The notes below the pieces were generated by a model that saw nothing but the letters and a program-made list of their open reading frames with translations, did no database searches and was not told the origin of the DNA. Positions 12,630 to 31,471 of a DNA stretch of 60,486 bases are shown one piece after another (the stretch's first letter is position 1; each line of letters opens with the position of its first letter). Made by a program: the position numbers and the translations under genes. The stretch is from NCBI GenBank assembly GCA_029062045.1, contig JAIDQV010000032.1, positions 1 to 60,486 on the forward strand. Reading direction: 5' to 3'. This stretch comes from Clostridia bacterium. GTDB lineage: Bacteria > Bacillota > Clostridia > Christensenellales > Borkfalkiaceae.

Positions 12630-12789
12630 ATCTTACCCCGTCTTTTGTATAAACCGAATAACCGTATTTTCATTTACAATTATATAATATAACTAGTCAA
12701 ATATATCATATCACTTGACGGGCGAAAAATCTAGTAGGAACCCGAAAAAAGTTTTCGGAAATTTTAGGAAAAACAGAATATCGTTTAAA

Positions 12790-12823
12790 GGGCGCGGGGG
12801 TTTAAGCCCTCCGCGCCCTTTTT
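12790..12823 (-). terminator. Terminator closing the Ter/ESCRT-like cluster
   Basis: GGGCGCGG (12790-12797) / CCGCGCCC (12811-12818) stem flanked by T/A runs, immediately downstream of the last gene (stop at 12840). Confidence 0.6.
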
Positions 12824-12839
12824 AACAATTTTTATTTAG

Positions 12840-14000
12840 TTACTTCATATCTTTTGTCAAAGGAATATCACATTCTTCGATAGTAATCATCTCTTCTTCT
12901 GTAATATTTCCTTTATCCATAAGCCGCTGCGCCTGATGCGTAACAACCGCCTGGAAAGTGTTTCTTGCGGTACGGCCGTTACCGAAGTCTTTATCCCTCT
13001 TTTCATACAGTTCGGTAAATCTGTCCGTCATAAGTTTTTCGGCAGCCGCCGTAAGTTTATAATTATTCTTTTTGCACAAGCCGAAGAATATTTTATAAAG
13101 CTCGTCGGGCGTGTAATCCTCAAAGTCGATAACGGTATTGAACCTTGACTTTAAACCCGAGTTGGTGGCAATTAAGTCCGCCATAGGCTGAGAGTACCCA
13201 GCCATTATAACTACTAACTCGTTACGGTGGTCTTCCATTGCTTTAAGCACTGTATCTATAGCTTCCTGCCCGAAGTCGTTGCCGCTACTGTTGCCTTTGA
13301 GCATATACGCTTCGTCTATAAACAGAACGCCGCCAAGGGCCTTGTCTATGACTTCACGGGTTTTAGGTGCCGTCTGTCCGACGTAACCTGCAACCAAATC
13401 ATTGCGTGCGGTTTCTACAAGCTGACCCTTTTGCAAAATGCCGAGCGACCTGTAAATTTGCGCCATAAGTCTTGCAACGGTTGTTTTACCTGTACCGGGG
13501 TTGCCCGTAAATACCATATGATAAGAGAAGCCGTCGGGAACGGGCAAACCTTTTTCCTGCCTCAGCTTGAAAAACTTTACCTGGTCGACCCATGACGAAA
13601 CTTTGGCTTTAACGCCCGAAAGTCCTATAAGTCCGTTCAGTCTTGCCAAAGCCTCCTCAACGGAAAGCTGTTCAACTTCCTGTTCTTCCGCCTTGGCTTT
13701 GCTTTCAACCGCCTTTTGCGTGTTTGCCGCACCGCCTCTTGCGGGTTGACCGCCAGAAGTCACGCTAGTGCCGTTGCTCTTATTTGTTACCGGGCGCACG
13801 CCGTTCTCGGCTTTTTGCTCGCACTCTTCGGCCAAAGCAATATACTCGTTCTTTTTAGCCGGAAATGCCGCTGCCGCCTGCCTGTACTGCTTTGCCGCCG
13901 CCTTGTAAGACTGCACGGCGACAGACATCCCGCAGCTTGCCTGCTTTTCGGCTTTGTCGAGCATGGTTTTTGCTGCTAATAAGTAATAATCGGCATTCAT
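12840..14000 (-). CDS. AAA+ ATPase, CbbX/SpoVK/EccA-type, with N-terminal MIT/TPR-like helical domain
   Basis: Walker A FTGNPGTGKTTVAR; Walker B GGVLFIDEAY; sensor region VVIMAGY...LKSRF, characteristic of the CbbX/SpoVK clade. The N-terminal ~70 aa form a three-helix, Ala/Lys/Gln-rich segment. Confidence 0.8.
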   Translation of the reverse strand: MNADYYLLAAKTMLDKAEKQASCGMSVAVQSYKAAAKQYRQAAAAFPAKKNEYIALAEECEQKAENGVRPVTNKSNGTSVTSGGQPARGGAANTQKAVESKAKAEEQEVEQLSVEEALARLNGLIGLSGVKAKVSSWVDQVKFFKLRQEKGLPVPDGFSYHMVFTGNPGTGKTTVARLMAQIYRSLGILQKGQLVETARNDLVAGYVGQTAPKTREVIDKALGGVLFIDEAYMLKGNSSGNDFGQEAIDTVLKAMEDHRNELVVIMAGYSQPMADLIATNSGLKSRFNTVIDFEDYTPDELYKIFFGLCKKNNYKLTAAAEKLMTDRFTELYEKRDKDFGNGRTARNTFQAVVTHQAQRLMDKGNITEEEMITIEECDIPLTKDMK

Positions 14001-14007
14001 ATATCAC

Positions 14008-15513
14008 CTATTGCTGAATAAGTCCGAGGTCTTTTTCCAACGATTCGTATTTTGCCTCGTCCTTTTCTTCATTCATATCGGTATATGCCGCAGCCGCGCC
14101 CGCGAAAGTATTCATATTGATTTCCTCGCTGTCCGCTACTGCGCCCGCTACGCCTATCTCATCCAACTGCTCGTTGCTCTTTGCAACGGCTTCTTTAAGA
14201 TAGGTGGCAAGTCCCTGATAATCGGCAAACCGTCCGCCCGTCATCTGGTTTATCTTCATATTGGTAGCTTCGAGGTCTTGCTGAGTAGAGAGCTTGTCTA
14301 TAAGCAACAACTGCTCCTGCAAGGTAGATAACGCATTTCTGTAACGGCGGATAGAATACTGCACGCCGTTACGCTTTGCATTGAGCTGGTCAATCTGTCC
14401 GTCAAGTATAAGACAGTCGGAAGGTGAAGCCGTTTTACGTTTAATAAGTAAAGGCTTTAACTGTGCGTTCAAATCGTTGAGTTCGTCCTGAACGTCGTCT
14501 ATTTTATCATTGTAAGTATCGATGCTCTGCTGTAATGCCTGACGCGTTCTGTTAATGTCGTTAGCCATTTCCGCAGTGCCCATAACGCCGCCGAGTGCGG
14601 TTGCGCCGCCCATTGTCTGCGAAGTCGCCGCCGTTCCCGCCGTAGTAGTGGCAAACGGGTCGCCGAACGCGCCGAAAGCGTCACCCTCGGCAAACGGGTC
14701 ACCCAAAGCACCGAACGCACTGCCTGCGCCCAAAGCCGCCATATCCGCGGCAACCTGGCTCTGTTCTTCGGCTCTGCGCTGATTTGTTTCGGCAATATTT
14801 TCTCTGTAAACCTGCATCTGGTCGTCGCTTACGGTACGCCCGTTGACAAGCTCTGCATTTGTATTGTAGGTTTCCTCGAAAATGGTCGTAGTCTTTTCGC
14901 GTTCAAGCTCGGCCTGTAATCCGTTGAGCTTGTTGACGGTATTGGTTATCTCCATTTTGCATACGTTTGCCTGCGAAATGATAGACCTGTCGGTAGGGTT
15001 TGCGGCGTGTCTTTCACGGAGTTTTTCAAACGCCTTGTTCAAATCGGCGAGCTTTGCATTCTCCTCGTCGATTCTGTCCTGCAATTCTTCCGCACGGGAC
15101 TTTTCGTATGCGATGCCCTGCTTAGCCATTTTGCCAAGCGTTTTTTGTGCCTGTTGCTCGCGCTTTAAATCCGCTTTGGTTTTCTGTCCGCCCATTATGC
15201 AATAGCTCTGTCTTTCGGCAACCGCCTTTTTGATTTTTTCGAGCTTGTTTACAGCCGCCGTGGACTGCTGCTTGCTTAAACATACGCTTACTTCCTGTAA
15301 AAGCGAAAGAATAAGCGCGTCTAACTTCATTACCTCTTCCGAAGATGAATTGCCCTGATTTTGCATTTCAAGCTGAATATCTTTTAAGTATGAAGCAATT
15401 TCTCCGCCGAGACGGTTGCTCATAGTAAGCGCTGTTACGGTGGAAATAATTTGATTTTTATTGTATGTATTTGTTTCCTCTATCTTCTTTTTCTTATTAC
15501 CGAATAATCCCAT
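14008..15513 (-). CDS. Long coiled-coil protein, ESCRT-III/PspA-superfamily-like (two helical halves joined by a Gly/Ala-rich GDPFA-repeat linker)
   Basis: The N-terminus MGLFGNKKKK mirrors eukaryotic CHMP N-termini. Two heptad-rich halves flank the linker AFGALGDPFAEGDAFGAFGDPFA. The C-terminus is acidic and ends in an amphipathic helix, EAKYESLEKDLGLIQQ. Confidence 0.5.
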   Translation of the reverse strand: MGLFGNKKKKIEETNTYNKNQIISTVTALTMSNRLGGEIASYLKDIQLEMQNQGNSSSEEVMKLDALILSLLQEVSVCLSKQQSTAAVNKLEKIKKAVAERQSYCIMGGQKTKADLKREQQAQKTLGKMAKQGIAYEKSRAEELQDRIDEENAKLADLNKAFEKLRERHAANPTDRSIISQANVCKMEITNTVNKLNGLQAELEREKTTTIFEETYNTNAELVNGRTVSDDQMQVYRENIAETNQRRAEEQSQVAADMAALGAGSAFGALGDPFAEGDAFGAFGDPFATTTAGTAATSQTMGGATALGGVMGTAEMANDINRTRQALQQSIDTYNDKIDDVQDELNDLNAQLKPLLIKRKTASPSDCLILDGQIDQLNAKRNGVQYSIRRYRNALSTLQEQLLLIDKLSTQQDLEATNMKINQMTGGRFADYQGLATYLKEAVAKSNEQLDEIGVAGAVADSEEINMNTFAGAAAAYTDMNEEKDEAKYESLEKDLGLIQQ

Positions 15514-15527
15514 AATTCAACTCCTTA

Positions 15528-16424
15528 TTAAGATAATTTCTTGCCGCATCCGGGGCAGAACTGAACTTGACTACTTAACTTTGCACCGCATCTGGGGCAA
15601 TACTGCACGGGCTGGTTGATACCTGCATTACCCGCGTTTTGATTAGCGTTTTGCGCGGGGGCCTCGGTTGAAGGCGCCGTAGGCATACCGCCTATAAGCG
15701 AATTGAGCGCGTCTATTTCCGCACGCTGGGCACGTTCCTTTTCACGCCTGTCCAATTTTTCTTCTTTTCTACGGTTTTGGTTATCGAAGTACTCGGTGCG
15801 CTTATTCTTGTACTCTTCGTTAAAGAAAATTTGCTTTAACGAGAAATCCTCAACGCCGACGCCGTAGTTTGAAAAGGCTTCTGACAAAATTTTTGTAAGC
15901 GCGGTCGATATAAGCGATAACTGGGTATTTACCGTCTGATAGTCGTACTTTTGTAAAACCTCAGCAAGCCTTGTGGTCATTACCTCGCAAGTTTTACTTC
16001 TTATGTACTCGTCTATATCGTCAACGGTAATATCCGTTTTACCCAAATTGGTATAAAGCGCCCAGGGCTGGTTTATTCTTATTCTGAGGTGTCCGTTCAA
16101 GCCGACTGCCGTTTCGCAATTCAGTTCAAAATCCTTGAAAGGAATACCGCCTACTCCGCAGGGTATATCGTAAGTTTTGTCGGCGTTTACACCGATAAGC
16201 TGTAAGCTGTACCCGAACTTTTCTTCTTCCTTGGATTTTACTATCCAGCGTCCGGGAGTGTTTACGGATTTAAGCCCGCCGTTTACTATGTAAATTCCGA
16301 GACAGCCGGGTGCGACTTCCAACGTGGTATCGCGTACGGCAGATGTTAAGTCAATATTCCACATAACGTATTTGTCGCTTGCGGAGATGATGATGTTTCT
16401 TAATTTTTCGCTTTTTCCGAACAT
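15528..16424 (-). CDS. SPFH/Band-7-like protein with C-terminal double zinc ribbon (B. subtilis YdjI / COG4260-like)
   Basis: The N-terminal ~200 aa have the YdjI-like beta/alpha domain layout. This is followed by a charged coiled coil (RRKEEKLDRREKERAQRAE), a low-complexity Q/N/A linker, and YCPRCGAKL...FCPGCGKKLS. Confidence 0.65.
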   Translation of the reverse strand: MFGKSEKLRNIIISASDKYVMWNIDLTSAVRDTTLEVAPGCLGIYIVNGGLKSVNTPGRWIVKSKEEEKFGYSLQLIGVNADKTYDIPCGVGGIPFKDFELNCETAVGLNGHLRIRINQPWALYTNLGKTDITVDDIDEYIRSKTCEVMTTRLAEVLQKYDYQTVNTQLSLISTALTKILSEAFSNYGVGVEDFSLKQIFFNEEYKNKRTEYFDNQNRRKEEKLDRREKERAQRAEIDALNSLIGGMPTAPSTEAPAQNANQNAGNAGINQPVQYCPRCGAKLSSQVQFCPGCGKKLS

Positions 16425-16436
16425 ATTTAAGCTCCT

Positions 16437-17606
16437 TTAATTATTTATTCTTTCAAGTACGTTTTTAATATAAATTGCGGGAACACACATCGCTATGCCG
16501 CCCTCGCTTTTTCCGGGATAAAAAGTTATGACGCCTATCACGTTATTTGCCGCGTCTAAAAGCGCGCCGCCCGAATTTCCGTGGTTTACCGTCATATCCG
16601 TCTGAATTACGAAATCTACGTTTTTAGGATAATCGGTTTTACGGTTGGGACTTGACACGACGCCCTTGGATACGCTTAAACCTATTCCTAGGGGATTGCC
16701 CACGGTATAGACTTCTTCACCGAACGTAACCCCTTCCGTTCTCAGCGAAAGCAATTTGCGGGAAGAAAGCGCTTCGCCGATATTCCCTGTGAAGCACAGA
16801 ACGGCGATGTCAAGTTCGGGCAAGATTGCAAGCGGCATAAGATTATACGTCCGTTTGTCTATACTCGGCTCAAAATTTGCCTCTATGCACTCGGGGGATT
16901 CCCCTACGACGTGCGCATTTGTAATAACGTAACCACCCTGCACCAAAAAGCCCGAACCTTTGCTCAGCATTTTGTTGCGCCCCGACTTAAATACGGCGTT
17001 TATCGAAAGTATGGAAGGCAAAACCTCTTTTACCCTTTCAACGAAACTTCCGCCCTCTGCGGGAAGCTGGATATTACGGTTTTCGCTTACAAAGTCGTTA
17101 TTTCTCTCTGCGTCGCGGGTGTTTATTTTCAAACTGTTATAATCGTAACCCGTACCGCTTGCGCCCACAGACAAGTTTTGCGGCGCATCACCGCCCCAGT
17201 TCTCCGTCTGTAACTTTATACGGCTTGCGGCGTGCCCTGCGTCTGCGGCGATTTTTAACCATTTATGTGCCGTAAGACGGTCGGGCGGGTTGCTGTTTAA
17301 GCAAATTTCGGCATATTTGTACATGCCGTCGGGGTATCCGCGGAAAGCAAGCACCCTGTAAATTTCTTCGACTTCGCCGGGTGCGGAGCTTACCAAGCCC
17401 TGTTCTTTACCTAATGCCACACGGTACAAAACGGCATTGTCCAAAAAGGACGAGTATTTCAAAAATACCGAACATCCGCCGTTTTTCGTATCCCCTGCCT
17501 CGATTTCCGTGTTTTGCGCGGCAACGGAGGTCAACTTTTCACCGCAATAACGGCAAAAGTTGTCTTCGTCGGGGGATTGCTTGTTACACTTTACACAAAT
17601 TTTCAT
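16437..17606 (-). CDS. Zn-ribbon + Sel1-like repeat + trypsin-like (S1C/HtrA-type) serine protease, no PDZ
   Basis: N-terminal CVKCNKQ...FCRYCGEKL. Sel1-like segment YKYAEICLNSNPPDRLTAHKWLKIAADAGHAAS. Catalytic triad context ITNAHVV / LDIAVL / GNSGGALLD. Confidence 0.8.
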   Translation of the reverse strand: MKICVKCNKQSPDEDNFCRYCGEKLTSVAAQNTEIEAGDTKNGGCSVFLKYSSFLDNAVLYRVALGKEQGLVSSAPGEVEEIYRVLAFRGYPDGMYKYAEICLNSNPPDRLTAHKWLKIAADAGHAASRIKLQTENWGGDAPQNLSVGASGTGYDYNSLKINTRDAERNNDFVSENRNIQLPAEGGSFVERVKEVLPSILSINAVFKSGRNKMLSKGSGFLVQGGYVITNAHVVGESPECIEANFEPSIDKRTYNLMPLAILPELDIAVLCFTGNIGEALSSRKLLSLRTEGVTFGEEVYTVGNPLGIGLSVSKGVVSSPNRKTDYPKNVDFVIQTDMTVNHGNSGGALLDAANNVIGVITFYPGKSEGGIAMCVPAIYIKNVLERINN

Positions 17607-17618
17607 AATTTACCTGCC

Positions 17619-18755
17619 TCAACGGTCGTTCTTTTGTGATTTTAACCGTTCGGATACGTATGCGGTGACAACGGAATTTAAGTCCGAACCGTCTTTTATG
17701 CCCGCTTTTACTCCGGCTACGTAATATTTAAAGTCGTCGCAAATATAAGTTATAGACCTTCCGCTAAGCCCGTCCGACATATCGGCTAAGTACTCGAAAT
17801 CCAGCTTTTCCTTATATTCGTCTTCAAGCTCCGCAAGTTTGGATTTGAAAAAGCTCAACCTCATATTTTTATCGGGAAGGGGTATGTGAATACGCTTTCT
17901 GAACCTGTCCAAAATGCCGACGTCAAGAAGCTCCATACAGTTTGTGTTGGCAAGTATTAGAAAGGACTTGTTCTGTTTAATGCCGTCCATATTTCTTAAA
18001 AGTGCGGGAACCGCCGAAGCCGAGGCTTTGTCGTCACTGCCGCGCTGTTTTGCTATTTCGTCGAATTCGTCGAAAAATACGGTCAGCCCGCATTTGTTTT
18101 TTTCGGAATAGGAACGGAGCGCAGCAAACACTTTATCGATATTTTTTGCGGTTTCACCAACGTAACAGTTTACAAGCGCGGCTACGTTTACAAGCACGAA
18201 GGGCTGGTTTATTTCCTTTGCAACAGCCTTTGCAAACGTTGTTTTACCCGTGCCCGGAGGGCCCTCTAAAAGAATAGCCTTGTTATCGTTGAATTTATAG
18301 TTGTAATAATCGCCGTAGCGCAAAGGATTAATTACGTATTCCGTAACAGACTCTTTTGCGCTTTCAAGACCTATTACGCCTTCAAAGCCCTGTTCGAGTT
18401 CGTCGGCTTTATAAAACGTAAAGTATTCTTCCATACCTTCGGTATCAACGTCCTGGCTTTCGGTAGCGCAATCGTCGTCTTTATGCTGTACGGTTGGAAC
18501 GGCGCTCTGTCTTACCGGGGTTTGGTTATTAGCCGTAACCGTTATAGCCGCCGCGATAGCTTTAAGCCTTTGGGCGCGGCTGTTCAGTTCGGCCGCTTCC
18601 GCCCCGCTTTTACGCATAGAAAACTGTTCGAGATAGAACGCCGCCTGTTCAAACTTTTTCTTTGCCGTCGCAAGGTTGCCGTACTGCTTTGCCTTTAAGG
18701 CTTCGTCATAGTTTGTTTTAAAATTACCGTATAAGTATTCGTCGGATAAAGCCAT
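17619..18755 (-). CDS. MIT-like domain + classical AAA+ ATPase (Vps4-like architecture)
   Basis: N-terminus YDEALKAKQYGNLATAKKKFEQAAFYLEQF...AELNSRAQRLKAIAAAI resembles the Vps4 MIT three-helix pattern. Walker A LEGPPGTGKTTFAKA; Walker B VFFDEFDE; SRH-like ANTNCMELLDVGILDRFRKRIHIPLPD. Confidence 0.65.
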   Translation of the reverse strand: MALSDEYLYGNFKTNYDEALKAKQYGNLATAKKKFEQAAFYLEQFSMRKSGAEAAELNSRAQRLKAIAAAITVTANNQTPVRQSAVPTVQHKDDDCATESQDVDTEGMEEYFTFYKADELEQGFEGVIGLESAKESVTEYVINPLRYGDYYNYKFNDNKAILLEGPPGTGKTTFAKAVAKEINQPFVLVNVAALVNCYVGETAKNIDKVFAALRSYSEKNKCGLTVFFDEFDEIAKQRGSDDKASASAVPALLRNMDGIKQNKSFLILANTNCMELLDVGILDRFRKRIHIPLPDKNMRLSFFKSKLAELEDEYKEKLDFEYLADMSDGLSGRSITYICDDFKYYVAGVKAGIKDGSDLNSVVTAYVSERLKSQKNDR

Positions 18756-18770
18756 TTCAGCCTCACTTGA

Positions 18771-20369
18771 TTATTTGTCGTTTTCACTCTTCCATTCGTT
18801 GAGTTTTATAATATCTTCGGCCTGTACAGACGAGTGAATGACTTGAAGCGCTTCTTCAAAATCCTCACCCGATATGTATTTTTCCTGCGTTTTTATTCCG
18901 CGGATTATGGATATTTCCTCTATCCTGTCAAGAAGGTTGGTTATATCCGAGCCGTTAAATCCGTTTGTCTTTTCAACGATTTCGCCCAGGTTTATATCGT
19001 CCCTTACCGCAACCACGCCTTTTTCCGTAATTTTTACAAGGCGCTTATTTATCATATACTCTCTTGCGGGTGCGTCGGGAAGTCCGACGTAAATTTTGGT
19101 GCCGAAGCGTCCCGGTCTTAAAAACGCACTGTCTATATCCCAAGGTTTGTTAGTTGCGGCAATCAAGAAAAGAATGTTGCCCGTATCTTTTTTATAACTG
19201 TCTATACCTTGCAACTGCGCCAAAAATTCCGAACGCAACTGTTTTGCATACTGCGACTTAGTCGACTTGGGCGAAATAGAATCCATTTCGTCAAAATATA
19301 TTACGGCGCAGGGGAACTCTCTTGCCTGTGCAAACAGCGCGCGTACTGCCTTTTCGGTATTGCCAGCGCCCTGGTGCAGTAGGTCGGACGGCTTAACCGA
19401 ACAGAATTTTGCGCCTATTTCGTTTGCTATTGCCGCGGCAATCATGGTTTTGCCCGTTCCGGGAGGGCCGTAAAGGCACAAACCGCCGCCGTTCTTCTTT
19501 TCGTAGCCCTCGAATGCCTGAGGGTTTTTTAGGGGAAGCAATACCTTCACTTCCACTACTTCTTTGACTTGTTCGAGGCCTGCAATATCCTCAAACCTAA
19601 TTGAGGGAAGGCTGTCCCAGTTGAATTTAAACTCGGAAGACGCCCCCGCATCCCCGTTAACAAATTTGTCCTCGGGCGTTTCTGCGGGCGTGTTCGGCTT
19701 ATTCTCGGGTTTGGGACGCACAGTCGTAGCGGGCACAGGTGCAGGTGCGGGCGTAACCCCCTCTACTTGGGGTTGGCGGGTTGGCGTTTCCACCTGCGGC
19801 TGAGCTGCGGCAAACTCTTTTTCGAGTGCGGCAAGGGTGTCGTCCATTTGCAAGCTGTCACGGGAAATCTCGTCGTTTAAAAGCTCGCGGACGTCATCGT
19901 CGCTTATATCGGACACCGAATCCACACTGCTTGAAAACGCACTGTTGTTATTTTTTAACGCCTGTTGAAGCTGAGCCGAAGTGATACTCTGCTGATACAG
20001 CGCCTTCATAAACATCTTTTCGCTGTTGCTTACGTGTATAGCCTTGCAGGTCTTATATACGTTTTCCATAACGCTGTCAAGCGAGTTGACAAACTTCTTG
20101 TTAAGGTGCTGCATTTCGCACAAATCCTTTGCAATAGTAAAGTTTGCAACCATATCTTCCGCCTGTGCAAGGTTAAACATTGCGTTTTTAAGTAAAGCAA
20201 CCATAGCTTTATACTGCGATTCGTTGCCCTTCTTTAATGCCTCTTTGGCCTTTTGCGCGTACTCGTCCCTCTTCCTGGTCAAGGTCACGATAGCACCGTT
20301 CAAAGCGCGCATCGTTTCTTCCTGCTCGCGTTTCAATTTTAACTGTTTCTTAAAATCACGAAATCCCAC
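18771..20369 (-). CDS. ESCRT-III/Snf7-like N-terminal domain fused via Pro-rich linker to classical AAA+ ATPase
   Basis: Residues 1-190 are paralogous to the 189-aa ORF upstream (IVTLTRKRDEYAQKAKEALKKG vs VVTLTKKRDAAFAMVLEARQKG). Pro-rich linker TPAPAPVPATTVRPKPENKPNTPAETP. AAA: LYGPPGTGKTMIA, VIYFDEMDS, SRH ATNKPWDIDSAFLRPGRFGTKIYVGLPD. Confidence 0.65.
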   Translation of the reverse strand: MGFRDFKKQLKLKREQEETMRALNGAIVTLTRKRDEYAQKAKEALKKGNESQYKAMVALLKNAMFNLAQAEDMVANFTIAKDLCEMQHLNKKFVNSLDSVMENVYKTCKAIHVSNSEKMFMKALYQQSITSAQLQQALKNNNSAFSSSVDSVSDISDDDVRELLNDEISRDSLQMDDTLAALEKEFAAAQPQVETPTRQPQVEGVTPAPAPVPATTVRPKPENKPNTPAETPEDKFVNGDAGASSEFKFNWDSLPSIRFEDIAGLEQVKEVVEVKVLLPLKNPQAFEGYEKKNGGGLCLYGPPGTGKTMIAAAIANEIGAKFCSVKPSDLLHQGAGNTEKAVRALFAQAREFPCAVIYFDEMDSISPKSTKSQYAKQLRSEFLAQLQGIDSYKKDTGNILFLIAATNKPWDIDSAFLRPGRFGTKIYVGLPDAPAREYMINKRLVKITEKGVVAVRDDINLGEIVEKTNGFNGSDITNLLDRIEEISIIRGIKTQEKYISGEDFEEALQVIHSSVQAEDIIKLNEWKSENDK

Positions 20370-20382
20370 GGTATTTCTCCCT

Positions 20383-20952: not shown

Positions 20953-20955
20953 ATC

Positions 20956-23270: not shown

Positions 23271-23271
23271 A

Positions 23272-24399: not shown

Positions 24400-24400
24400 T

Positions 24401-25360
24401 TCAATCTTTTATGCCGTAAATCTCGGACAGAATAAGTATCCGCTCCGCCCACTTATAATGGCACTTAACTTCGTTCATTCTGTCACCGGAGCTGCTTTTT
24501 TCCACTCCGAATCCGCCGCGGTCCCAGTTTAATATGCTCTTTGCATCGTTGAAATCTTCACGGCGCACTTTAAGACTTTCATAAATATATCTGAGCTGAC
24601 AGGGATGTATAGCCGTTTTACCGATAAAGCCGTTAAGCCTGTCCAATTCCAGCTCCCTTTCAAGCCCCTTTGCCCACGCGCCGTCATCTGCCCCGAAATA
24701 TTCCCATACCGGTCCGGAAATTATATATTTATCCGAAAATACGTTTATAATGTCGGACAGCACGCCGCTTAAAACGCAAACGTCGTACACGGTTTTGTCA
24801 ATCGGCCGTCTCAATCCGAAAATATTGCTGAAATCGTTTACGCCTACGCGTACGTTGAGGATATATTCGGACACGTCCGCCAATACCTCTTTAATTTTTA
24901 AAAGGCGTTCCCTGCGCGTCACTATGCCGGCAACCCCGGGACTTTCGATAATTGGCATAAAATATACCCGCAAGTCGGAATTGCTGTTGATGCTTAAAAT
25001 AATATTTTTATACTCGTCAGCGTCGGGAAAATCGAATTTAGGTAAAATATACCCCGTCAATATATCCGAAACGCCGTTCAAAAACGCGTGAACGTGTTGC
25101 AAGTGCCTAGGGCTTCTCACCCGCACGAAAAGCAGCACGTCTTTGCGGTTTAACCCTGCATTTTTTAACTCTGTTAAAGTACTTAAAAGCTGCTTCTCCG
25201 CCTCTTCGACAGCATCGTCCGCAATCGAATCTTCAAGGCAAAAACAAACAGAAGTCAACGCCTGTATTTCTTTGTTTATTATTTTTTTAGCAACTCCCTT
25301 TCTTAGGGCAGGCACATATAAAAGTCCTCCGACCTTGTAGGCAAGATAATCTTTATCCAC
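24401..25360 (-). CDS. HpcH/HpaI aldolase / citrate-lyase beta (CitE)-like C-C lyase
   Basis: GGLLYVPA...VCFCLEDSI matches the CitE N-terminal pattern (LFVPG...DLED). Other motifs: IESPGV, GVNDFS, AIHPCQ. Confidence 0.7.
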   Translation of the reverse strand: MDKDYLAYKVGGLLYVPALRKGVAKKIINKEIQALTSVCFCLEDSIADDAVEEAEKQLLSTLTELKNAGLNRKDVLLFVRVRSPRHLQHVHAFLNGVSDILTGYILPKFDFPDADEYKNIILSINSNSDLRVYFMPIIESPGVAGIVTRRERLLKIKEVLADVSEYILNVRVGVNDFSNIFGLRRPIDKTVYDVCVLSGVLSDIINVFSDKYIISGPVWEYFGADDGAWAKGLERELELDRLNGFIGKTAIHPCQLRYIYESLKVRREDFNDAKSILNWDRGGFGVEKSSSGDRMNEVKCHYKWAERILILSEIYGIKD

Positions 25361-25375
25361 TAACCTTTTCCCCTG

Positions 25376-27196
25376 TCAATCTTCTACTTCTATGCCATAA
25401 CCGTTGCTGATTTTTTCTATTCCGTCGTTTACGCCGAGTATTGTGAAATTAATTTTCCAGCTTCCCTTGTAACGGTAGAACTCAAACAATAAATTGCTAA
25501 CCGTAACGTCATACGACGACGGGTCGAATACATACAGAACTTCGCCCACCTGTAGCGTAAACTTTGCACTGTCGATTTTGGGAACAGCCCTCTTGCGGGA
25601 ATTTTCCAAACTCAATGCCGCAACTATAAATTTAATTCTGTCGGTTTCAAAATCCGTTTTGCTTAAATTTACAGTTATGTCCGAGTAATTTTCAAACTCG
25701 CGCAACTCGATTGATTTATCCAAAGAAACGTTGTTGCCTGCAAATACCAAATCTTTTTCCGACAGTACCTTCCCTTTTGTTGTAACAGGGAATATATAAA
25801 CCCCCGCCAACGCATCGGCCATATTGGCGCTGTATTCGATATGAATATATATCTTTTCGTCTTCGTTGTCTATAGGCGCCCGCTGACCGCGTGTAACAAT
25901 AACTTCTTTGGTCGCCTTTTTACGTTTGTTTTTGTTCTTAGGCGCCGGCGCGGGTGCAGGCTCGGGCTCAGGCTCGTAAGAATAATCGGGGGTATCATCC
26001 CACACGATAGTCCTTCTGTTGGTAGAACGTCTGCGAACAGGTTCGGGCTCGGGCTCGTAATCGGGTTCGGGCTCGTAATCACTCTCGATATCCTCGTCCA
26101 CGTCGGGAACGTTCTCTTCGGCTTGAACGGGTGCCTCTTGCTGTTCTTCGGCAGGTTGCTCTTCCTCGGGTTCCGCCACTTCGGGCTGCGCAGGCGCAAC
26201 CTCAACGGGTGCAGGCGCAGGTGCGGGTTCAAGCTCTTCATCCGAAACCATAAGCCTGTCAAACACCGTTTCGGGGTCGTAGCAATATTCAAGCCCCTCG
26301 AAAAACTTTTTAAAAGTACGCTCTATAGCGGCTTTGCCCGTATAGTTTTCAATTAAATACTCAACTTTCTGCTTCTTCTTTCCCGTCTTGCGCTCCATAT
26401 CCAAAACATAGCGCACCTCTTCCTTGGTGTCGCAAGCAACGCTTCGGGAATTTGTGGAAGATATGAACACAAACGCTTTGCAATTATCTATTGCTTTTTT
26501 TATCGACGTCCAATAATTTTGCGCAGCGTTACGGCCGTGTTGCAGGTTTCTTATTGCAACAAAGCAAGCAAGTCCGTTTTCTTCAAGGTAGTCCACAAGT
26601 TTTTGAACTGTTTCCATATCCTTGCTGGAATAACATATAAACGCGTCGCGCGGAAGCTCGGGGTCGTATACGCAGTCGTTTACCTTTTGCGACTCTTCAT
26701 CGTATTTGGTACGGTATGTAGAGTAAAGCTCAAGGTCTGTGTTTTTATACGCCCGCTCTATAAGATTGCATACAGACATCATATTGCGGCCGTTCAAAGA
26801 TTTCAGCGAAAAATCAAGCACGGTACTAATATCGTCCATATTGCTTTTGACGTCTATAGAATCGAGAAAACTTATTAACGCAGCGTCGTTCTCCTCATTT
26901 GCCGCTTCAAAAAAAGACGCGAAAAAATCTTGCGGAAGATAACCTTTTATCTCTCGGCACAGTCTTAGTATTTGCGCGCTGTCGGTATATTCGTCGCTTA
27001 TTTTTTTCCAAAGCTGCGTGCGCAAATTGGCAACTTTTTCCTGCTTTTCTTTATCGAGAAGTTCGGAAAGCGCCTCGGCTTGTTTTACGAGGGTATCCTC
27101 TTTAAACTGTGTACGGCAAAACTTGCAACGACAGCCGCTTTCGGTTTCTATAATTTCTCCGCCGCATTTAGGACAGGTAAGTTCAGTCAAGTTCAT
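25376..27196 (-). CDS. Zn-ribbon + helical domain + TIR domain + disordered Pro/Glu linker + degenerate TerD-like domain
   Basis: CPKCGG...CKFCRT. The TIR signature DAFICYSSKD...AFVFISSTNSRSVACDTKEEV includes a candidate catalytic Glu. The linker carries EPEP/APAP repeats. The C-terminal 175 aa are colinear with TerD (DLVFAGNN...FEFYRYKGSWKINF...GYGIEV) but lack the GDxxTG/GDDE Ca2+ clusters. Start refined to the ATG at 27196 (RBS AAAGGAAAT). Confidence 0.7.
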   Translation of the reverse strand: MNLTELTCPKCGGEIIETESGCRCKFCRTQFKEDTLVKQAEALSELLDKEKQEKVANLRTQLWKKISDEYTDSAQILRLCREIKGYLPQDFFASFFEAANEENDAALISFLDSIDVKSNMDDISTVLDFSLKSLNGRNMMSVCNLIERAYKNTDLELYSTYRTKYDEESQKVNDCVYDPELPRDAFICYSSKDMETVQKLVDYLEENGLACFVAIRNLQHGRNAAQNYWTSIKKAIDNCKAFVFISSTNSRSVACDTKEEVRYVLDMERKTGKKKQKVEYLIENYTGKAAIERTFKKFFEGLEYCYDPETVFDRLMVSDEELEPAPAPAPVEVAPAQPEVAEPEEEQPAEEQQEAPVQAEENVPDVDEDIESDYEPEPDYEPEPEPVRRRSTNRRTIVWDDTPDYSYEPEPEPAPAPAPKNKNKRKKATKEVIVTRGQRAPIDNEDEKIYIHIEYSANMADALAGVYIFPVTTKGKVLSEKDLVFAGNNVSLDKSIELREFENYSDITVNLSKTDFETDRIKFIVAALSLENSRKRAVPKIDSAKFTLQVGEVLYVFDPSSYDVTVSNLLFEFYRYKGSWKINFTILGVNDGIEKISNGYGIEVED

Positions 27197-27242
27197 ATCA
27201 TATTTCCTTTTCAGAAGAAATAAAAAGCATTCTTTATAAAAT

Positions 27243-27278
27243 GACAAAAATATAGGCAGCTATAATATGCCTATATTT
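27243..27278 (-). terminator. Intra-cluster hairpin + T-run (possible attenuator/partial terminator after the terD pair)
   Basis: On the minus strand: AATATAGGCA-tattatagc-TGCCTATATT followed by TTTTGTCATTTT, in the only long (~100 nt) gap of the cluster. Confidence 0.45.
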
Positions 27279-27298
27279 TGTCTTAGGATATAACTAAA

Positions 27299-27889
27299 TT
27301 AAACGTTAACTCCGTAACGACGGCAAAGAGCTTCAAGTCCGCCCTGATAGCCCGAACCTACGGCGTTGAACTTCCAACCGTCAGCGCTTCTGTAAATTTC
27401 GCATACTACTACTGCGGTTTCGGTAGAGAATTCTTCTCCAAGGTCAAATCTTACGGCTTCGGTGCCGTTTTCGTCGTTTTCGCTGTTTATTTTACATACT
27501 CTTACGTATGCGTTTGAAACCTGACCGAAGTTTTGACGTCTTGCTTTTCCATCGTAAATAGTTACGGTTATAACAATTCTGTCAACGTGTGAAGGTATTC
27601 TCGAGAAATTAATAATAATCTGCTCGTCGTCGCCGTCATCACTGTTACCGCCGGTGGTATCATCGCCAAGCGACCTTACCGCACCCGTATAATGCGCCTG
27701 ATTTCCGTAGAAGATAAAATCTTCGTCCGACGCAACTTTGCCGTTTGCACCGATAAGAAATGCGGAAGCATCCAAATCGAAGTCATAGCCGCCCGAATAG
27801 CGGTTAGGGTCCCAACCGAGCCCTACGAGAGCCAGTCTCATTTTTTTGTCTAAGCTAACTCTTTCACCTTTTTTTAAATTAACACCCAT
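27299..27889 (-). CDS. terD: TerD-family stress protein (Ca2+-binding)
   Basis: MGVNLKKGERVSL...GLGWD...DLDASAFL...GDDTTGGNSDDGDDEQI...EIYRSADGWKFNAVGSGY. This is the canonical TerD pattern, including both acidic Ca2+ motifs. Confidence 0.92.
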   Translation of the reverse strand: MGVNLKKGERVSLDKKMRLALVGLGWDPNRYSGGYDFDLDASAFLIGANGKVASDEDFIFYGNQAHYTGAVRSLGDDTTGGNSDDGDDEQIIINFSRIPSHVDRIVITVTIYDGKARRQNFGQVSNAYVRVCKINSENDENGTEAVRFDLGEEFSTETAVVVCEIYRSADGWKFNAVGSGYQGGLEALCRRYGVNV

Positions 27890-27917
27890 TTTTCTATCTC
27901 CTTTAATTTTTTACTTA

Positions 27918-28520
27918 TTACTGAAAGCGTGCAGCCATATCGATGATACTGTTATCGTTAGTAGGCTGACCTATGGCGTTAAATTTCCACTCGCCCTGGC
28001 TGCGGTACAGTTCGCCGACAACCATAGCCGTCTTGCCATAGTAATTTTCGGAAAGATTAAATTTGCAAAGCTCTCTTCCGTTTCTGCCGTCGCATACGCG
28101 GATGAATGCGTTTCTGATAAGTCCGAAGTGCTGTTTACGCTCGTACGCCTGATAAATAGTTACGACGAAAACAATTCTGTCGTATATCTGGGGTAATGCG
28201 TCGAGATTTACGAAAATCTGCTCGTCGTCGCCTTCGCCGGCACCCGTTAAGTTGTCGCCCTGGTGAACTACCGTTCCCGTATAGTGGCGCAGGTTATTAT
28301 AGAATACAAGGTCCTTCTTATCAACAAGTTTACCGTTCTGGCAAAGTATCGCACTTGCATCGCAGTCTATATCTGCGGGAGGTGCGGAAAACAACGAAGA
28401 GAAGAAACCTCTCTTTTGTTCAACTTCGTCCCAACCGAGTCCGACCATTACGTTTGTTAACGAATCGCCGCCCTCTTTGCGCAAATTGATTTTTTGCCCT
28501 TTTACTAAATTAACGCTCAT
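27918..28520 (-). CDS. terD: TerD-family stress protein (paralog)
   Basis: MSVNLVKGQKINL...GLGWD...DIDCDASAIL...GDNLTGAGEGDDEQI...ELYRSQGEWKFNAIGQ. Confidence 0.92.
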   Translation of the reverse strand: MSVNLVKGQKINLRKEGGDSLTNVMVGLGWDEVEQKRGFFSSLFSAPPADIDCDASAILCQNGKLVDKKDLVFYNNLRHYTGTVVHQGDNLTGAGEGDDEQIFVNLDALPQIYDRIVFVVTIYQAYERKQHFGLIRNAFIRVCDGRNGRELCKFNLSENYYGKTAMVVGELYRSQGEWKFNAIGQPTNDNSIIDMAARFQ

Positions 28521-28576
28521 ATTTTTCTCCTTTGTTTTATTAATTTATACGGATAAGAAATCCAATTTAATTAGAT

Positions 28577-31327
28577 TTAAGCTGCCTTGGACTCGTAATC
28601 GTCTTTGGTTTCAGAGTCCTCGGTTACGTTTGACGAAGTTACTACTTCGGCTACTTTTACGGTCTTCTTTTTGCTTATCGCTTTTACTATTGCCTTTCTC
28701 AACAAATCTACGGGAATAATGCTTATAGACATAACAAGCACTACCGCCCACTCTACAAGGTTGAGTCCGTAGCAGTTGAAAATTACGTTTCCGAGATAGG
28801 TCATAATAATCTGTACTGCCGCAATGACGCCGATAACGATAAGGAAGCCTTTGTTTTTGCTTATATTCTTAAATAAGTTGAATTCCTCTGTTCTTGCGTT
28901 GAACGCATTGAACACCGATGTGAAAATGAAGAATGCGAAATAACCGGTAAGTAAATATTTATCTGCGGGGTCATCCCTGAAGAAGTCTCTTACGAAGGGA
29001 ACGAAAAGAAGCACCATACTAAGTCCGAACGTCCACAGACAGCCCGTTATAATAGAGCTCCACATGTAGGGGCTTACGATAGCCTCGTCCCTGCGCTTGG
29101 GCTTTTCGTGCATATACTTTTTAAGTGCAGGTTCGCCGCCGAACGCAAGCGCCGCAAGCGTATCCATTACGAGGTTTACCCAAAGTATCTGGGTAATCGT
29201 CAACGGTGTTTCCACACTGAGAAGAGGACAAATGAACGAAATAAGCACCGCCGCTATGTTTATGGTAAGCTGGAAAATTATGAATTTTCTTATGCTGTTG
29301 AAAATCGTTCTTCCGTATAAAATAGCCTTTTGGATAGAGCTGAAATTATCGTCGAGAACAACTACTTCGCTGGCTTCCTTTGCTACTTCGGTACCGCCGC
29401 CCATAGCAAAGCCTACGTCCGCACTCTTCAACGCGGGTGAATCGTTTACGCCGTCGCCCGTCATACCTACTACAAGGTTAAGCTCCTGCGCAAGTTTTAC
29501 AAGCCTGCTCTTATCGGAAGGCAACGCTCTTGCAACCACGCGAATTTTGGGGATAATTGCCTTGACCTCTTCGTCGCTGAGTTGCGCAAGTTCCGCAGAG
29601 GTAAGCACCATGTCGTCTTCGTTCTTTAAAAGCCCTACTTCTTTTGCAATGGCAACCGCGGTATTTTTACCGTCGCCGGTAATCATAACTACCTGCACGC
29701 CTGCCGCATGCACCTCGGCAATCGCGGCAACGGATTCGGGTCTTACGTCGTCCTTTATCTCCGCCACGCCTACCAGCGTATAATCGCCTTCGGGCAAACA
29801 ATCGTCTTTAATAACGCCGTCGCAAGTTGCAAACGCCAACACTCTTATGGATTTATCCGCAAGCTCGTTTATTTTATCGTAGATTGCGGGGAGTTTGTCC
29901 TTTAAGAGTTTTTTACTGCCCGTTACGTCGTAATAATACTTGCACTTTTCAAGTATTTTCTCGGGCGCGCCCTTTAATAAAGTTCCGTTGTAATCGCCCT
30001 TTACACTGCAAGCCGAATATTTATTCAAACTTGTAAAAGGTATATTGCCTTCAACGCTTTCGTTTAATTGAATGTCACTGTCAAGCACGTATTGAAGAAG
30101 GGCTCTTTCGGTCATGTTTCCGCCGATAACCTTCCTGTGCTCGCCGCTGCCCGAAATTTCAGCCAAGGTATTATAACTGATTCCTACGGCTACGTGTTTT
30201 CTCAAATTTTCGGGAATTTCCGCAAGTGTTTTGGTTTCGTTACATTCACCGTCTATAAAACCTATTGTTTCAAGCTGACCTTTGGTTATAGTACCCGTCT
30301 TATCACTGAAAAGGATGTTTAAGCTGCCTGCCGTTTCGATACCGGACACCTTTCTTACAAGGACGTTGTCTTTGAGCATCTTGCCCATATTCTGAGCAGA
30401 CACAATGGCTATCATAAGAGGCAATCCTTCGGGAACCGCCATTACTATGATTATTACGGCGAGCATAACAGCCTCAACGGCGTCGTTTGCTATGTTCATC
30501 CAATTCGAGAAGTACTCTTGCAGTTGTGCAGCATCAAACGCGTTGTGAATAAGCACACGCTGGAAAAGGAACGCAACCGCAATGGCAACGCCGCCGATAT
30601 ATCCGAACATGCTTATCTGTTTTGCAAGTTTACCGAGCTTTAACTTTAACGGGGTTTCCCTGTCGTCCTCTTCCTGCAATTCGCTGGCAATTTTACCGTA
30701 AACGGTGCTATCGCCAACCGTAGTTACCTGCATTACAGCATTGCCGCCGCAAACGGCCGAGCCTCTGAATATTTTATGTAAATCACTGAAATCGGTATTG
30801 CCGTCGTCGGTATAGCCTTCGGGCACGCAGGTTTTGGTAAATTCTTTAGCCTCGCCGTTTAAAACCGACTGGTCCACCTGCAACGTACCGTCAACGATAT
30901 AACCGTCGGCAGGAACTTTATCTCCGCCTTGAAGCAACACGCAGTCGCCTACAACTATATCGTCTATGCTTATTTCGACGATTTCGCCGTTACGGTAAAC
31001 CTTGCATTTTATTTGCGACGCTTCGTCCTGCAATTTTTTGAATGCGTTTTCGTTCTTATATTCAGAAAACGTGGATACTAACGTAGCCAATAAAACCGCG
31101 GCAGCTATGCCGACAGATTCGTACCAGGCTACCTGTCCCAAAATGGCGAATACTACGTTGATAATCAATGCAACGCACAGTATTTTAATCATGGGGTCGT
31201 TAAAATTGCCCAATAATTTACGCCAAAACCCTTCACGCTTTTGTTCGGTCAACTGGTTTTTACCAAACTTTTCGCGCGATTGCTCAACCTCAGAATCGTT
31301 CAAACCGAATTTTTTCATACTACTCAC
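28577..31327 (-). CDS. P-type (P2) Ca2+-transporting ATPase
   Basis: DKTGTIT phosphorylation site, TM4 VPEGLP, hinge MTGDGVNDSPAL, and TGD/KGAPE-type motifs. 916 aa with 10 predicted TM helices. Confidence 0.88.
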   Translation of the reverse strand: MSSMKKFGLNDSEVEQSREKFGKNQLTEQKREGFWRKLLGNFNDPMIKILCVALIINVVFAILGQVAWYESVGIAAAVLLATLVSTFSEYKNENAFKKLQDEASQIKCKVYRNGEIVEISIDDIVVGDCVLLQGGDKVPADGYIVDGTLQVDQSVLNGEAKEFTKTCVPEGYTDDGNTDFSDLHKIFRGSAVCGGNAVMQVTTVGDSTVYGKIASELQEEDDRETPLKLKLGKLAKQISMFGYIGGVAIAVAFLFQRVLIHNAFDAAQLQEYFSNWMNIANDAVEAVMLAVIIIVMAVPEGLPLMIAIVSAQNMGKMLKDNVLVRKVSGIETAGSLNILFSDKTGTITKGQLETIGFIDGECNETKTLAEIPENLRKHVAVGISYNTLAEISGSGEHRKVIGGNMTERALLQYVLDSDIQLNESVEGNIPFTSLNKYSACSVKGDYNGTLLKGAPEKILEKCKYYYDVTGSKKLLKDKLPAIYDKINELADKSIRVLAFATCDGVIKDDCLPEGDYTLVGVAEIKDDVRPESVAAIAEVHAAGVQVVMITGDGKNTAVAIAKEVGLLKNEDDMVLTSAELAQLSDEEVKAIIPKIRVVARALPSDKSRLVKLAQELNLVVGMTGDGVNDSPALKSADVGFAMGGGTEVAKEASEVVVLDDNFSSIQKAILYGRTIFNSIRKFIIFQLTINIAAVLISFICPLLSVETPLTITQILWVNLVMDTLAALAFGGEPALKKYMHEKPKRRDEAIVSPYMWSSIITGCLWTFGLSMVLLFVPFVRDFFRDDPADKYLLTGYFAFFIFTSVFNAFNARTEEFNLFKNISKNKGFLIVIGVIAAVQIIMTYLGNVIFNCYGLNLVEWAVVLVMSISIIPVDLLRKAIVKAISKKKTVKVAEVVTSSNVTEDSETKDDYESKAA

Positions 31328-31370
31328 TCTCTAAATTTCATCTGTTAAGCAGATTATTTATCAATGTTAT

Positions 31371-31399
31371 ATTATAATACCAAGGCGGGGGCTTGTCAA
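31371..31399 (-). promoter_or_regulatory. Consensus sigma-70-type promoter for the Ca2+-ATPase/Ter/ESCRT-like cluster
   Basis: The minus strand reads TTGACA-agcccccgccttggtat(17 nt)-TATAAT, about 45 nt upstream of the ATG at 31327. Confidence 0.65.
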
Positions 31400-31442
31400 C
31401 CCTATTATAAAATATTTCGACAAAAATCGTTGCGTACGTTCA

Positions 31443-31471
31443 ATAAAAACGAGGCAGTAAAATTACCTGCC
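31443..31471 (-). terminator. Rho-independent terminator after sugar ABC ATPase gene
   Basis: Minus strand GGCAGG-taatttta-CTGCC followed by TCGTTTTTATT. It insulates the fructan locus from the Ter cluster. Confidence 0.65.

Follow-up and report, generated by a model that had tools for sequence, protein, structure and literature searches.

Among the described systems closest to the gene cluster reported here are the Ter clusters and the ESCRT-III/Vps4 machinery. TerD binds Ca2+, and plasmid ter operons give resistance to phage and to pore-forming colicins. Ter clusters in which TerD stands together with a nucleoside-like-metabolite module were reportedly described by Anantharaman, Iyer and Aravind in 2012. 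A role for TerD in sensing specialised nucleotide derivatives has, moreover, been discussed (PMC7159879). The ESCRT-III/Vps4 pairing (CdvB/CdvC; CHMP/Snf7 and VPS4) is regarded in one review as confined to archaea and eukaryotes (PMC10936438), and according to another, a Vps4-like partner is apparently absent from bacteria (PMC7619361). The cluster analyzed here, 16 genes in 18.5 kb, belongs to a Clostridia bacterium (Borkfalkiaceae; assembly GCA_029062045.1, contig JAIDQV010000032.1, positions 1-60,486 of the forward strand); this whole stretch of 60,486 nucleotides is called the window. The cluster is composed of a putative Ter-type input module (31327-21456) and a second module (21459-12840), which encodes Snf7-like proteins and AAA+ ATPases and is an autonomous, apparently undescribed cassette of gut Clostridia-like metagenome-assembled genomes (MAGs). 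The two modules are recurrently coupled and are predicted to form one operon.

Proteins combining an SPFH domain with a Zn-ribbon are known as partners of ESCRT-III-family proteins, namely, YdjI with PspA in Bacillus subtilis and in the archaeal "Meth_adaptin" loci (PMC10936438, PMC11237479). A survey of PSP and Snf7 proteins reports some bacterial Snf7 homologues, as well as Vps4-like transfers with snf7 displaced; trypsin, CbbX, FtsK and TerD are not mentioned in it or in its supplement, and the cassette is not described there. A survey of TIR systems contains no ESCRT, Snf7, TerD, SPFH or AAA. The initial annotation of this DNA knew of no described system joining the two modules, and none was found in the searchable literature: no paper combines TerD with Snf7, ESCRT-III or Vps4, the 2012 Ter description lying outside that scope.

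Snf7-Like Proteins

The central protein of the cassette is a 189-aa protein (20383-20952; like all genes of the cluster, on the minus strand), identified as a divergent member of the Snf7/ESCRT-III family through intermediate sequences, a family profile, an AlphaFold2 (AF2) model and Foldseek. The protein and 33 close homologues have no Pfam match, even at E <= 10, and phmmer returned nothing for it among the PDB sequences, where its close family likewise gave no Snf7 match. For the Snf7 link, only a broadened profile of 95 sequences and scans of the individual members gave matches. The wider family, collected by a profile search in 1.84 billion proteins, counts 287 representative clusters, the members being proteins of ~190 aa or the N-terminal domains of longer proteins. 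Pfam Snf7 is matched by 10 of the 95 short members and 3 of the 39 fused ones. One of these members, P0152, lies above the curated Snf7 cut-off (PF03357; 29.1 vs. 27.3 bits, model positions 3-146 of 171) and aligns with the window protein over 178 residues (BLASTP E = 9e-17); here and below, P-numbers denote family member proteins and L-numbers the retrieved neighbourhood loci. The 95-sequence profile itself matches human CHMP2A at full length (E = 6.2e-4, 5-152 to 2-145), followed by CdvB2 (0.013) and CdvB (0.14).

A second Snf7-like domain makes up the N-terminus (~residues 1-190) of a 532-aa protein (18771-20369), where it is fused to a classical AAA+ ATPase. Within this N-domain, residues ~27-126 were recognized by BLASTP as paralogous to the 189-aa protein (E = 2e-12). 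Fusions also occur in the wider family. Among the 39 fused relatives (P0127-P0230), the partner is a classical AAA domain in 16, RuvB_N and RuvB_C in 14 and 13 and FtsK/SpoIIIE in 12; NERD, TnsA-like N-terminal and HerA domains occur three times each.

In the AF2 model of the 189-aa protein (predicted local distance difference test, pLDDT, 79), helices are found at residues 10-51, 55-112, 119-146 and 162-180. Their order corresponds to the ESCRT-III layout: an alpha1-alpha2/3 hairpin, alpha4, alpha5 and a C-terminal helix. The top Foldseek match is CdvB (probability 0.98), and CdvB2, CHMP2A/3 and the Asgard ESCRT-IIIB are also retrieved; all E-values are at least 0.07, and BAR domains are interspersed among the matches. 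Taken with the P0152 bridge, the CHMP2A match and the paralogy, the profiles and the model place the 189-aa protein and the 532-aa N-domain as divergent members of the Snf7 clade, not the PspA clade, of the ESCRT-III family, in agreement with the Snf7-like call made initially. A PspA-type identity was considered and rejected, as the profile matches are CHMP and CdvB proteins; PspA_IM30 (PF04012) has no match in the cluster proteins, the 33 close homologues or the short family members.

Four cassette families share a basic and hydrophobic N-terminus of the M(G)(L)FGxKK type. The forms MFGKK and MGLFGNKKKK presumably resemble the N-terminal membrane motifs of CHMP/ESCRT-III proteins. At the other end, the Snf7-like proteins, together with the 501-aa protein discussed below, terminate in conserved acidic amphipathic helices.

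AAA+ ATPases

Three AAA+ ATPases are encoded in the cassette, all with a Walker A motif (GPPGTGKT in the classical pair) and a Walker B motif (DE after a hydrophobic strand) readable in the sequence. The ATPase part of the 532-aa protein scores 114 bits with Pfam AAA and, as the sole cluster protein, matches Vps4_C, marginally (22.6 vs. 21.3 bits); of the 60 PDB sequence matches listed, katanin p60 alone is a single-AAA-domain protein. The adjacent 378-aa protein (17619-18755; Pfam AAA, 107.5 bits) has VPS4B in that position, again among 60 matches listed (15-341 to 26-347). It is also the only cluster ATPase that retains an aromatic pore loop (NCYVGET), with Tyr in most orthologues and Leu in the group of L004, L005, L009 and L021. 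Both proteins are assigned to the classical clade.

The N-terminal ~75 residues of the 378-aa ATPase form a conserved helical, MIT-like or TPR-like domain with the consensus RAERLKxIAD. MIT domains, which had been proposed for this protein and for the third ATPase, could not be confirmed: for both N-termini, phmmer, a profile against PDB sequences and Pfam gave no MIT match (weak TPR only), and an hhalign comparison of the 378-aa N-domain with four approximate Vps4/CdvC MIT sequences, although in register (17-67 to 16-74, P = 0.008), reached a probability of 5% and was not significant. An MIT assignment of the two N-termini is only weakly suggested. Similarly, the Vps4-like label holds as far as classical AAA+ proteins with both Walker motifs are concerned but not at the level of the family thresholds: with the NCBIfam CdvC equivalog, the 532-aa and 378-aa proteins score 163 and 132 bits vs. 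a cut-off of 650, with similar results for CDC48, PAN and IteA. It is plausible that the pair works like Vps4; that it is Vps4 is not established.

The third ATPase (386 aa, 12840-14000; Pfam AAA and AAA_lid_6) carries an N-terminal helical domain and is of the CbbX/EccA/SpoVK type. Its PDB matches are CbbX (6e-55) and EccA1 (6e-54), and its NCBIfam scores, 276 bits for SpoVK, 263 for EccA and 242 for CbbX, are all under the cut-offs. In L024, L025 and L027, the CbbX-type ATPase bears a C-terminal FtsK-like ATPase.

Compared to the ESCRT-III/Vps4 systems of archaea and eukaryotes, the cassette has in common the paralogous Snf7 subunits and their helix layout, the basic/hydrophobic N-termini, the acidic C-terminal helices and the neighbouring classical AAA+ ATPases, of which one has a Vps4_C-type helix and the other a three-helix-like N-domain and the aromatic loop. 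On the contrary, the host is a bacterium, the window proteins miss Pfam Snf7 directly, an MIT domain is not demonstrable and the CdvC/Vps4 cut-offs are far from reached. One Snf7-like domain is, moreover, fused to its own AAA+; a CbbX-type AAA+, a protease, TIR and HEPN are added; and neither ESCRT-I/II nor CdvA is present.

Conservation of the Cassette and Coupling to Ter Genes

Comparison of gene neighbourhoods revealed a conserved set of seven to eight genes in fixed order. The Snf7-like gene, preceded in the window by the Zn-ribbon-HEPN-like gene, the Snf7-like::AAA+ fusion and the AAA+ gene come first; these are followed by, sometimes, a gene for a helix-turn-helix protein, then the Zn-ribbon-trypsin, SPFH-Zn-ribbon, ~500-aa protein and CbbX-type AAA+ genes. 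In other loci, the second gene encodes a Snf7-like domain fused to a RuvB-like or FtsK-like ATPase, or one standing alone. The 189-aa family consists of 47 clusters at 90% identity and is present in 16 of 185,579 species genomes, in addition to metagenome contigs. All 16 carriers are Clostridia-like MAGs (one labelled Bacilli and one "bacterium"), from samples that include sheep colon, rabbit (Lapin) and Hadza human gut. A metagenome scan gave at least five loci.

Ter genes are absent from ~20 of the ~25 types of cassette neighbourhood, including the closest relatives, L033 and L034. In five lineages, Ter genes and the cassette are joined: the window, L002/L003/L014, L038, L039 and L028. Two gene orders are encountered. 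In the window, L038 and L028, the cassette follows the HAD gene; in L002/L003/L014 and L039, it is embedded between the TIR-TerD and the C-C lyase genes. Where both genes are within reach, the Zn-ribbon-TIR-TerD protein is 39-53% identical between the Ter-coupled lineages, and when Zn-ribbon-TIR-TerD proteins served as seeds, the cassette was reached in both cases with sufficient flanking sequence. Orthologues of the Ca2+ ATPase stand directly upstream of the Ter or cassette genes in L002, L006, L038, L039 and L040, and in L006/L007, the pump gene stands immediately ahead of a cassette that lacks TerD altogether. Because five diverged lineages and two gene orders are involved, the coupling is judged not to be due to chance: the repeated co-occurrence of the Ter and ESCRT-like halves is borne out, the adjacency is not confined to this genome and a chance juxtaposition, rejected on synteny, is largely refuted.

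TIR or HEPN proteins are frequently added to the cassette. In at least eight types of neighbourhood, TIR proteins lie beside it; Ter-less cassettes are accompanied by Zn-ribbon-TIR proteins like the 623-aa window protein in L023 and L029 and by TIR-leucine-rich-repeat (LRR) proteins in L001 and L035. The Zn-ribbon-TIR protein is seen as the component common to the Ter and cassette halves. HEPN-like homologues precede Ter-less cassettes in L010-L013 and L033, and the HEPN-like gene is assigned to the cassette side, not to the Ter side.

Ter-less cassettes are directly adjoined by large proteins of the TIR-LRR or LRR_5 (Flg_new-repeat) kind in L001 (12746-16306), L035 (632-2602) and L008 (18427-19431); the length of one such protein is 3034 aa.

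Other Cassette Proteins

The 167-aa protein at 20956-21459 consists of a Zn-ribbon and a HEPN-like domain. Its score with Pfam HEPN_MAE_28990 stays below the cut-off (23.5 vs. 26.8 bits), but the R-x4-H motif (RNSIAH) is conserved in homologues as RNxIAHG.

The 389-aa protein (16437-17606) combines a Zn-ribbon with a trypsin-like serine protease of the HtrA class (Pfam Trypsin_2, 86 bits), in which the motifs TNAHV, DIAVL and GNSGG can be read. The Sel1 repeats that were also annotated stay sub-threshold (19.6 vs. 30.7 bits). No signal peptide or transmembrane segment was found in any cluster protein except the Ca2+ pump. For this reason, the protease is considered cytoplasmic, and a secreted HtrA-type role was rejected.

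The 298-aa protein at 15528-16424 is an SPFH/Band-7 protein with a C-terminal Zn-ribbon, both above the cut-offs, as proposed (Band_7, 43 vs. 23.6 bits; Zn_ribbon_3, 31.4 vs. 27). Zn-ribbons are thereby present on four proteins of the cluster: TIR-TerD, HEPN-like, protease and SPFH. The B. subtilis pspA-ydjGHI system likewise encodes an ESCRT-III-superfamily protein with an SPFH protein carrying a C-terminal Zn-ribbon and is presumed to respond to envelope stress; the likeness between YdjI and the cluster protein is one of domain architecture. Unlike PspA/Vipp1 systems, the cluster has no PspA_IM30 match, its profile matches being CHMP2A and CdvB, and it includes three AAA+ ATPases and enzymatic effectors but no YdjG/YdjH-type partners. 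The archaeal Meth_adaptin loci (Makarova et al. 2024, PMC10936438) resemble the cassette in associating ESCRT-III and a Vps4-like ATPase with an SPFH-coiled-coil-Zn-ribbon protein. By their description, they are set apart by their archaeal host, by adaptin-like proteins and ProX and by the lack of the protease, CbbX-type AAA+, TIR, HEPN and Ter.

The last cassette protein (501 aa, 14008-15513) is all-helical and belongs to no Pfam family (AF2 pLDDT 72). It is made up of an MGLFGNKKKK N-terminus, a helical region, a disordered linker with PFA repeats, a conserved C-terminal hairpin domain and a KDExKYxxLExxLGL tail. The family comprises 37 clusters, and the cassette is present at every homologue-encoding locus retrieved. 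The Snf7/PspA-like label given to this coiled coil in the initial annotation could not be confirmed: hhalign against the Snf7-like profile gives a probability of 0.4%, BLASTP is negative and Foldseek lists no match at E < 0.02 for the model, with F-BAR, CHMP, Snf7 and Vipp1 mixed at low rank. ESCRT-III-like traits are limited to the N-terminal MGLFG motif and the hairpin-like C-terminal domain. In the linker (residues ~261-312), (D/N)PF(A/E) motifs are repeated, also in homologues; they are reminiscent of the DPF/NPF peptides found in endocytic adaptors of eukaryotes.

Ter-Side Module

The putative input module groups a pump with two TerD proteins, one protein of Zn-ribbon-TIR-TerD architecture and the "metabolite" genes of Ter clusters, and Pfam and NCBIfam agree with the functions assigned to all of these initially. 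The first gene (28577-31327, 916 aa as listed) encodes a PMCA-type Ca2+-translocating P-type ATPase (Pfam E1-E2_ATPase and Cation_ATPase_N/C; NCBIfam TIGR01517, 615 bits vs. a cut-off of 507) with eight transmembrane-like segments; translation probably begins at the ATG at 31318. Two TerD proteins follow, of 200 aa (27918-28520; Pfam TerD, 229 bits) and 196 aa (27299-27889; 235 bits). Both retain the acidic motifs, GDNLTG/GEGDDEQ in the former and GDDTTG/DGDDEQ in the latter.

The next protein (25376-27247, 623 aa as listed) is a succession of a Zn-ribbon, a helical part, a TIR domain, an acidic linker and a divergent TerD domain (Pfam TIR_2, 46.5 bits; TerD, 45.1 bits). The likely start is an ATG 16 codons inside the listed open reading frame (ORF). 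Across 18 homologues, a Glu of the TIR domain and the CxxC pairs are without exception conserved. This architecture is known from 14 protein clusters, all from Clostridia MAGs, and in relatives, the N-terminal Zn-ribbon/helical/TIR module is reused with LRR, Sel1 or NINE C-termini, which is interpreted as a sensor-swap pattern.

The metabolite genes encode a TIM-barrel C-C bond lyase of Ter clusters (CitE/HpcH-like, 24401-25360; PF15617, 332 bits), a PRTase_2 + TRSP phosphoribosyltransferase (23272-24399; PF15609, 147.5 bits; PF12500, 73.7 bits), a StiP + PELOTA_1 protein (22221-23270; PF11202, 343 bits; PF15608, 102 bits) and a HAD-family phosphatase (21456-22220; Pfam Hydrolase_3, 27.4 bits vs. 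a cut-off of 20.9). The set is complete in the window except for ATP-grasp_Ter, which is found in the related loci L002 and L038. The TerD paralogues, C-C lyase, PRTase_2/TRSP, StiP-PELOTA and HAD proteins are those of known Ter clusters. Unlike these, the cluster is without TerC, TerB, TelA and TerY (the first three having no Pfam match among the 16 proteins), the PMCA-type pump leads the operon, TerD is fused to Zn-ribbon-TIR and the Snf7/AAA+ cassette is joined.

Operon Layout and Flanking Genes

According to the ORF coordinates, the 16 genes follow each other on the minus strand from 31327 to 12840, as initially reported. The first three intergenic gaps measure 56, 28 and 51 nt, and the recomputed junctions after the terD pair are identical to those of the earlier list (15, 1, 1, 0, -4, 3, 13, 15, 12, 12, 14 and 7 nt). 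At the passage from one module to the other, the HAD and HEPN genes overlap by 4 nt, and the gap between the HEPN and Snf7-like genes is 3 nt. A consensus sigma-70-type promoter, TTGACA-17-TATAAT, precedes the first gene (31371-31399, minus strand); it is the sole 12/12 match in a 20-kb scan (12000-31999), and a terminator-like hairpin of the preceding sugar-ABC gene stands just ahead of it. After the last gene, whose stop codon is at 12840-12842, a GC-rich hairpin at approximately 12787-12821 (minus strand) is a probable terminator (-30.9 kcal/mol, z = -5.3; none of 200 shuffles folds as well). The hairpin described at this place is thereby upheld but the T-run is weak, with three T directly after it and a T5 run 12 nt further; the terminator scan made no call here. 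Inside the cluster, promoter-like (40 vs. 29.1 +/- 6.4) and terminator-like matches (31 vs. 28.0 +/- 6.1) are about as frequent as by chance, and the Rfam and tRNA scans gave no match. The single strand, the junctions of 0-15 nt, the lone perfect promoter and the terminal hairpin argue for a single operon.

The cluster is flanked by a two-component system downstream and fructan/sugar-uptake genes upstream. The former is a phosphorelay (7446-12629, minus strand) with its own promoter-like region, formed by an SBP_bac_3 hybrid histidine kinase of 1097 aa, an Hpt protein of 114 aa and an HD_5 (HD-GYP-type) response regulator of 503 aa; the other loci gave no sign of its being linked to the cluster. 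Within the fructan-utilisation run, an ORF of 703 aa (36630-38741, minus strand) has no Pfam family at E <= 1e-5.

A low-GC (0.29-0.40) defence island occupies positions 48004-59976 (minus strand), ~17 kb from the cluster, with sugar-metabolism genes in between. It contains a Shedu protein (SduA_C, 48004-49182), a DUF6119 protein (49300-50880) and, as a type III restriction pair, Res (51923-54994, with ResIII + RE_endonuc) and its methylase (55755-57623); an AbiEii-type ATPase (AAA_21, 58708-59976) is also present. At its edge, a lone 5S rRNA gene (47573-47688, minus strand, 66 bits) is the only rRNA or tRNA match in the window.

Possible Function and Alternative Explanations

The gene content, the Snf7 family membership, the conserved nature of the cassette and its recurring association with Ter, Ca2+ ATPase, TIR and HEPN genes are established. 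By sequence and by analogy, the cluster may be read as a membrane-associated conflict or damage-response system based on an Snf7 polymer and AAA+ ATPases, in which a Ca2+ or metabolite input is optional. We give this reading a probability of about 0.45. The Snf7-like proteins would co-polymerise on the inner face of the membrane, to which they would be bound only peripherally, since no cassette protein has a transmembrane segment. The SPFH-Zn-ribbon protein may scaffold this polymer. The AAA+ rings would grip the acidic tails at the C-termini and either build up or strip the polymer, the acidic helices of the Snf7-like and 501-aa proteins possibly serving as MIM-like handles for the helical N-domains of the ATPases. 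The Zn-ribbons of the TIR-TerD, HEPN-like, protease and SPFH proteins could be shared docking tags, by which the enzymes (TIR of the NADase type, HEPN of the RNase type and the protease) would be held or released by the scaffold as effectors or signal generators. In the Ter-coupled versions, the trigger would be Ca2+ entry or a nucleoside-like ligand made by the Ter enzymes, sensed via TerD, and the pump would reset the Ca2+ trigger.

In favour of a conflict system are the recurrence of TIR proteins, the invariant TIR Glu, the conserved R-x4-H motif of the HEPN-like protein and the protease without a signal peptide, along with the fusion of the Snf7-like domain elsewhere to RuvB-like, FtsK/SpoIIIE, NERD and TnsA-like domains. 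There is a partial likeness to two defence systems. As in IetAS, classical AAA+ ATPases are encoded beside a serine protease, and the PADLOC IetA models match the AAA domains (E = 1e-43); these matches appear to reflect generic AAA similarity, the NCBIfam IteA score is 138 bits vs. 510 and the protease is trypsin/HtrA-like, not subtilisin-like. With Thoeris, the cluster shares a TIR domain with a conserved Glu, with weak ThsB matches (E = 1e-6), but it has no ThsA-type effector (no SIR2, Macro or SLOG).

Several observations weigh against this reading. None of the known defence systems is recognized by PADLOC, whose matches are limited to generic similarity of AAA, TIR and protease proteins, relatives are absent from the IMG/VR viral contigs and the neighbours of the cassette are mostly housekeeping genes, not defence islands. 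Every instance of the cassette comes from a MAG or a metagenome. Pore loop 1 of the 532-aa ATPase (LLHQGAG) is without an aromatic residue, a feature conserved in orthologues (LLxQGxG), and because neither MIT domain is demonstrated, an MIT-MIM logic in the style of Vps4 is only an analogy. Concerning the trigger, the alignment reveals that the acidic motifs kept by the canonical paralogues are missing from the TIR-fused TerD domain, and direct Ca2+ sensing by this protein is therefore doubtful. As most cassettes are without Ter genes, Ca2+ or a Ter metabolite cannot be the trigger in general.

The alternative that survives best, though we consider it unlikely, is a housekeeping machine for envelope repair or remodelling without an immune role, in which the polymer, the SPFH protein and the AAA+ ATPases seal or shed damaged membrane, and TIR, HEPN and protease are regulators rather than toxic effectors, comparable to PspA/YdjI or to the Ca2+-triggered ESCRT-III of eukaryotes. 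Such a role would suit the Snf7 family membership, the SPFH + Zn-ribbon partner as in PspA/YdjI (PMC10936438), the basic/hydrophobic N-termini of four cassette proteins, the Ca2+ pump and Ca2+-binding-type TerD proteins alongside and the housekeeping neighbours with no link to defence islands. However, the very sparse and patchy distribution (16 of 185,579 species), the accessory sensors swapped among lineages (TerD, LRR, Sel1), the recurrence of TIR, HEPN and a cytoplasmic protease and the nuclease and translocase fusions in the wider family are characteristic of conflict systems rather than of the core upkeep of the envelope.

It is improbable that the cluster is a developmental or export membrane device, acting in sporulation engulfment or fission, vesicle release or as a secretion chaperone, with the Ter/Ca2+ genes providing a Ca2+ cue. 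The 386-aa ATPase scores best with the SpoVK and EccA models, Snf7-like domains or CbbX-type ATPases are fused to FtsK/SpoIIIE-type ATPases in variants and large LRR proteins of a surface type are adjacent in L001, L008 and L035. Nevertheless, none of the NCBIfam scores reaches its family cut-off, neither the window nor the loci contain other sporulation or type VII components, transmembrane segments and signal peptides are absent from all cassette proteins and, for such a role, far too few of the spore-forming Clostridia possess the cassette.

That two unrelated neighbouring operons are merely connected by read-through, their halves not cooperating, would agree with the Ter-less cassettes of most lineages, the closest relatives included, but is very improbable given the pairing in five lineages with a conserved TIR-TerD protein, the gene order in which the cassette lies inside the Ter cluster, the two TIR-TerD seeds that both led to the cassette, the Zn-ribbon-TIR proteins beside Ter-less cassettes and the tight HAD/HEPN/Snf7-like junctions.

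Implications

Returning to the conflict or damage-response system, a more far-reaching version can be put forward tentatively, and with more doubt than confidence: gut Clostridia would possess a true Snf7-clade ESCRT-III machine with dedicated AAA+ ATPases, whose Ter form is switched by Ca2+ or a metabolite and deploys TIR, HEPN and protease effectors. If true, the Ca2+ switch of the Ter-coupled form would parallel the Ca2+-triggered ESCRT membrane repair of eukaryotes.

Since the pairing of ESCRT-III with an ATPase is regarded as exclusive to archaea and eukaryotes, the occurrence in bacteria of Snf7-clade proteins with classical AAA+ ATPases, one of them fused, and an SPFH-Zn-ribbon protein is directly relevant to how ESCRT machinery arose and how modular it is. 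The fusions in the 287-cluster family suggest that bacterial conflict or DNA-handling systems make use of ESCRT-III-type scaffolds in a way so far unexplored. The mode of action of Ter systems has been obscure for decades, and their repeated wiring to a defined machine via the TIR-TerD protein and the Ca2+ pump offers a testable pathway. Should the cassette be a bacterial counterpart of ESCRT-III/Vps4 that is switched by Ter, these long-unexplained systems would gain a concrete downstream mechanism.

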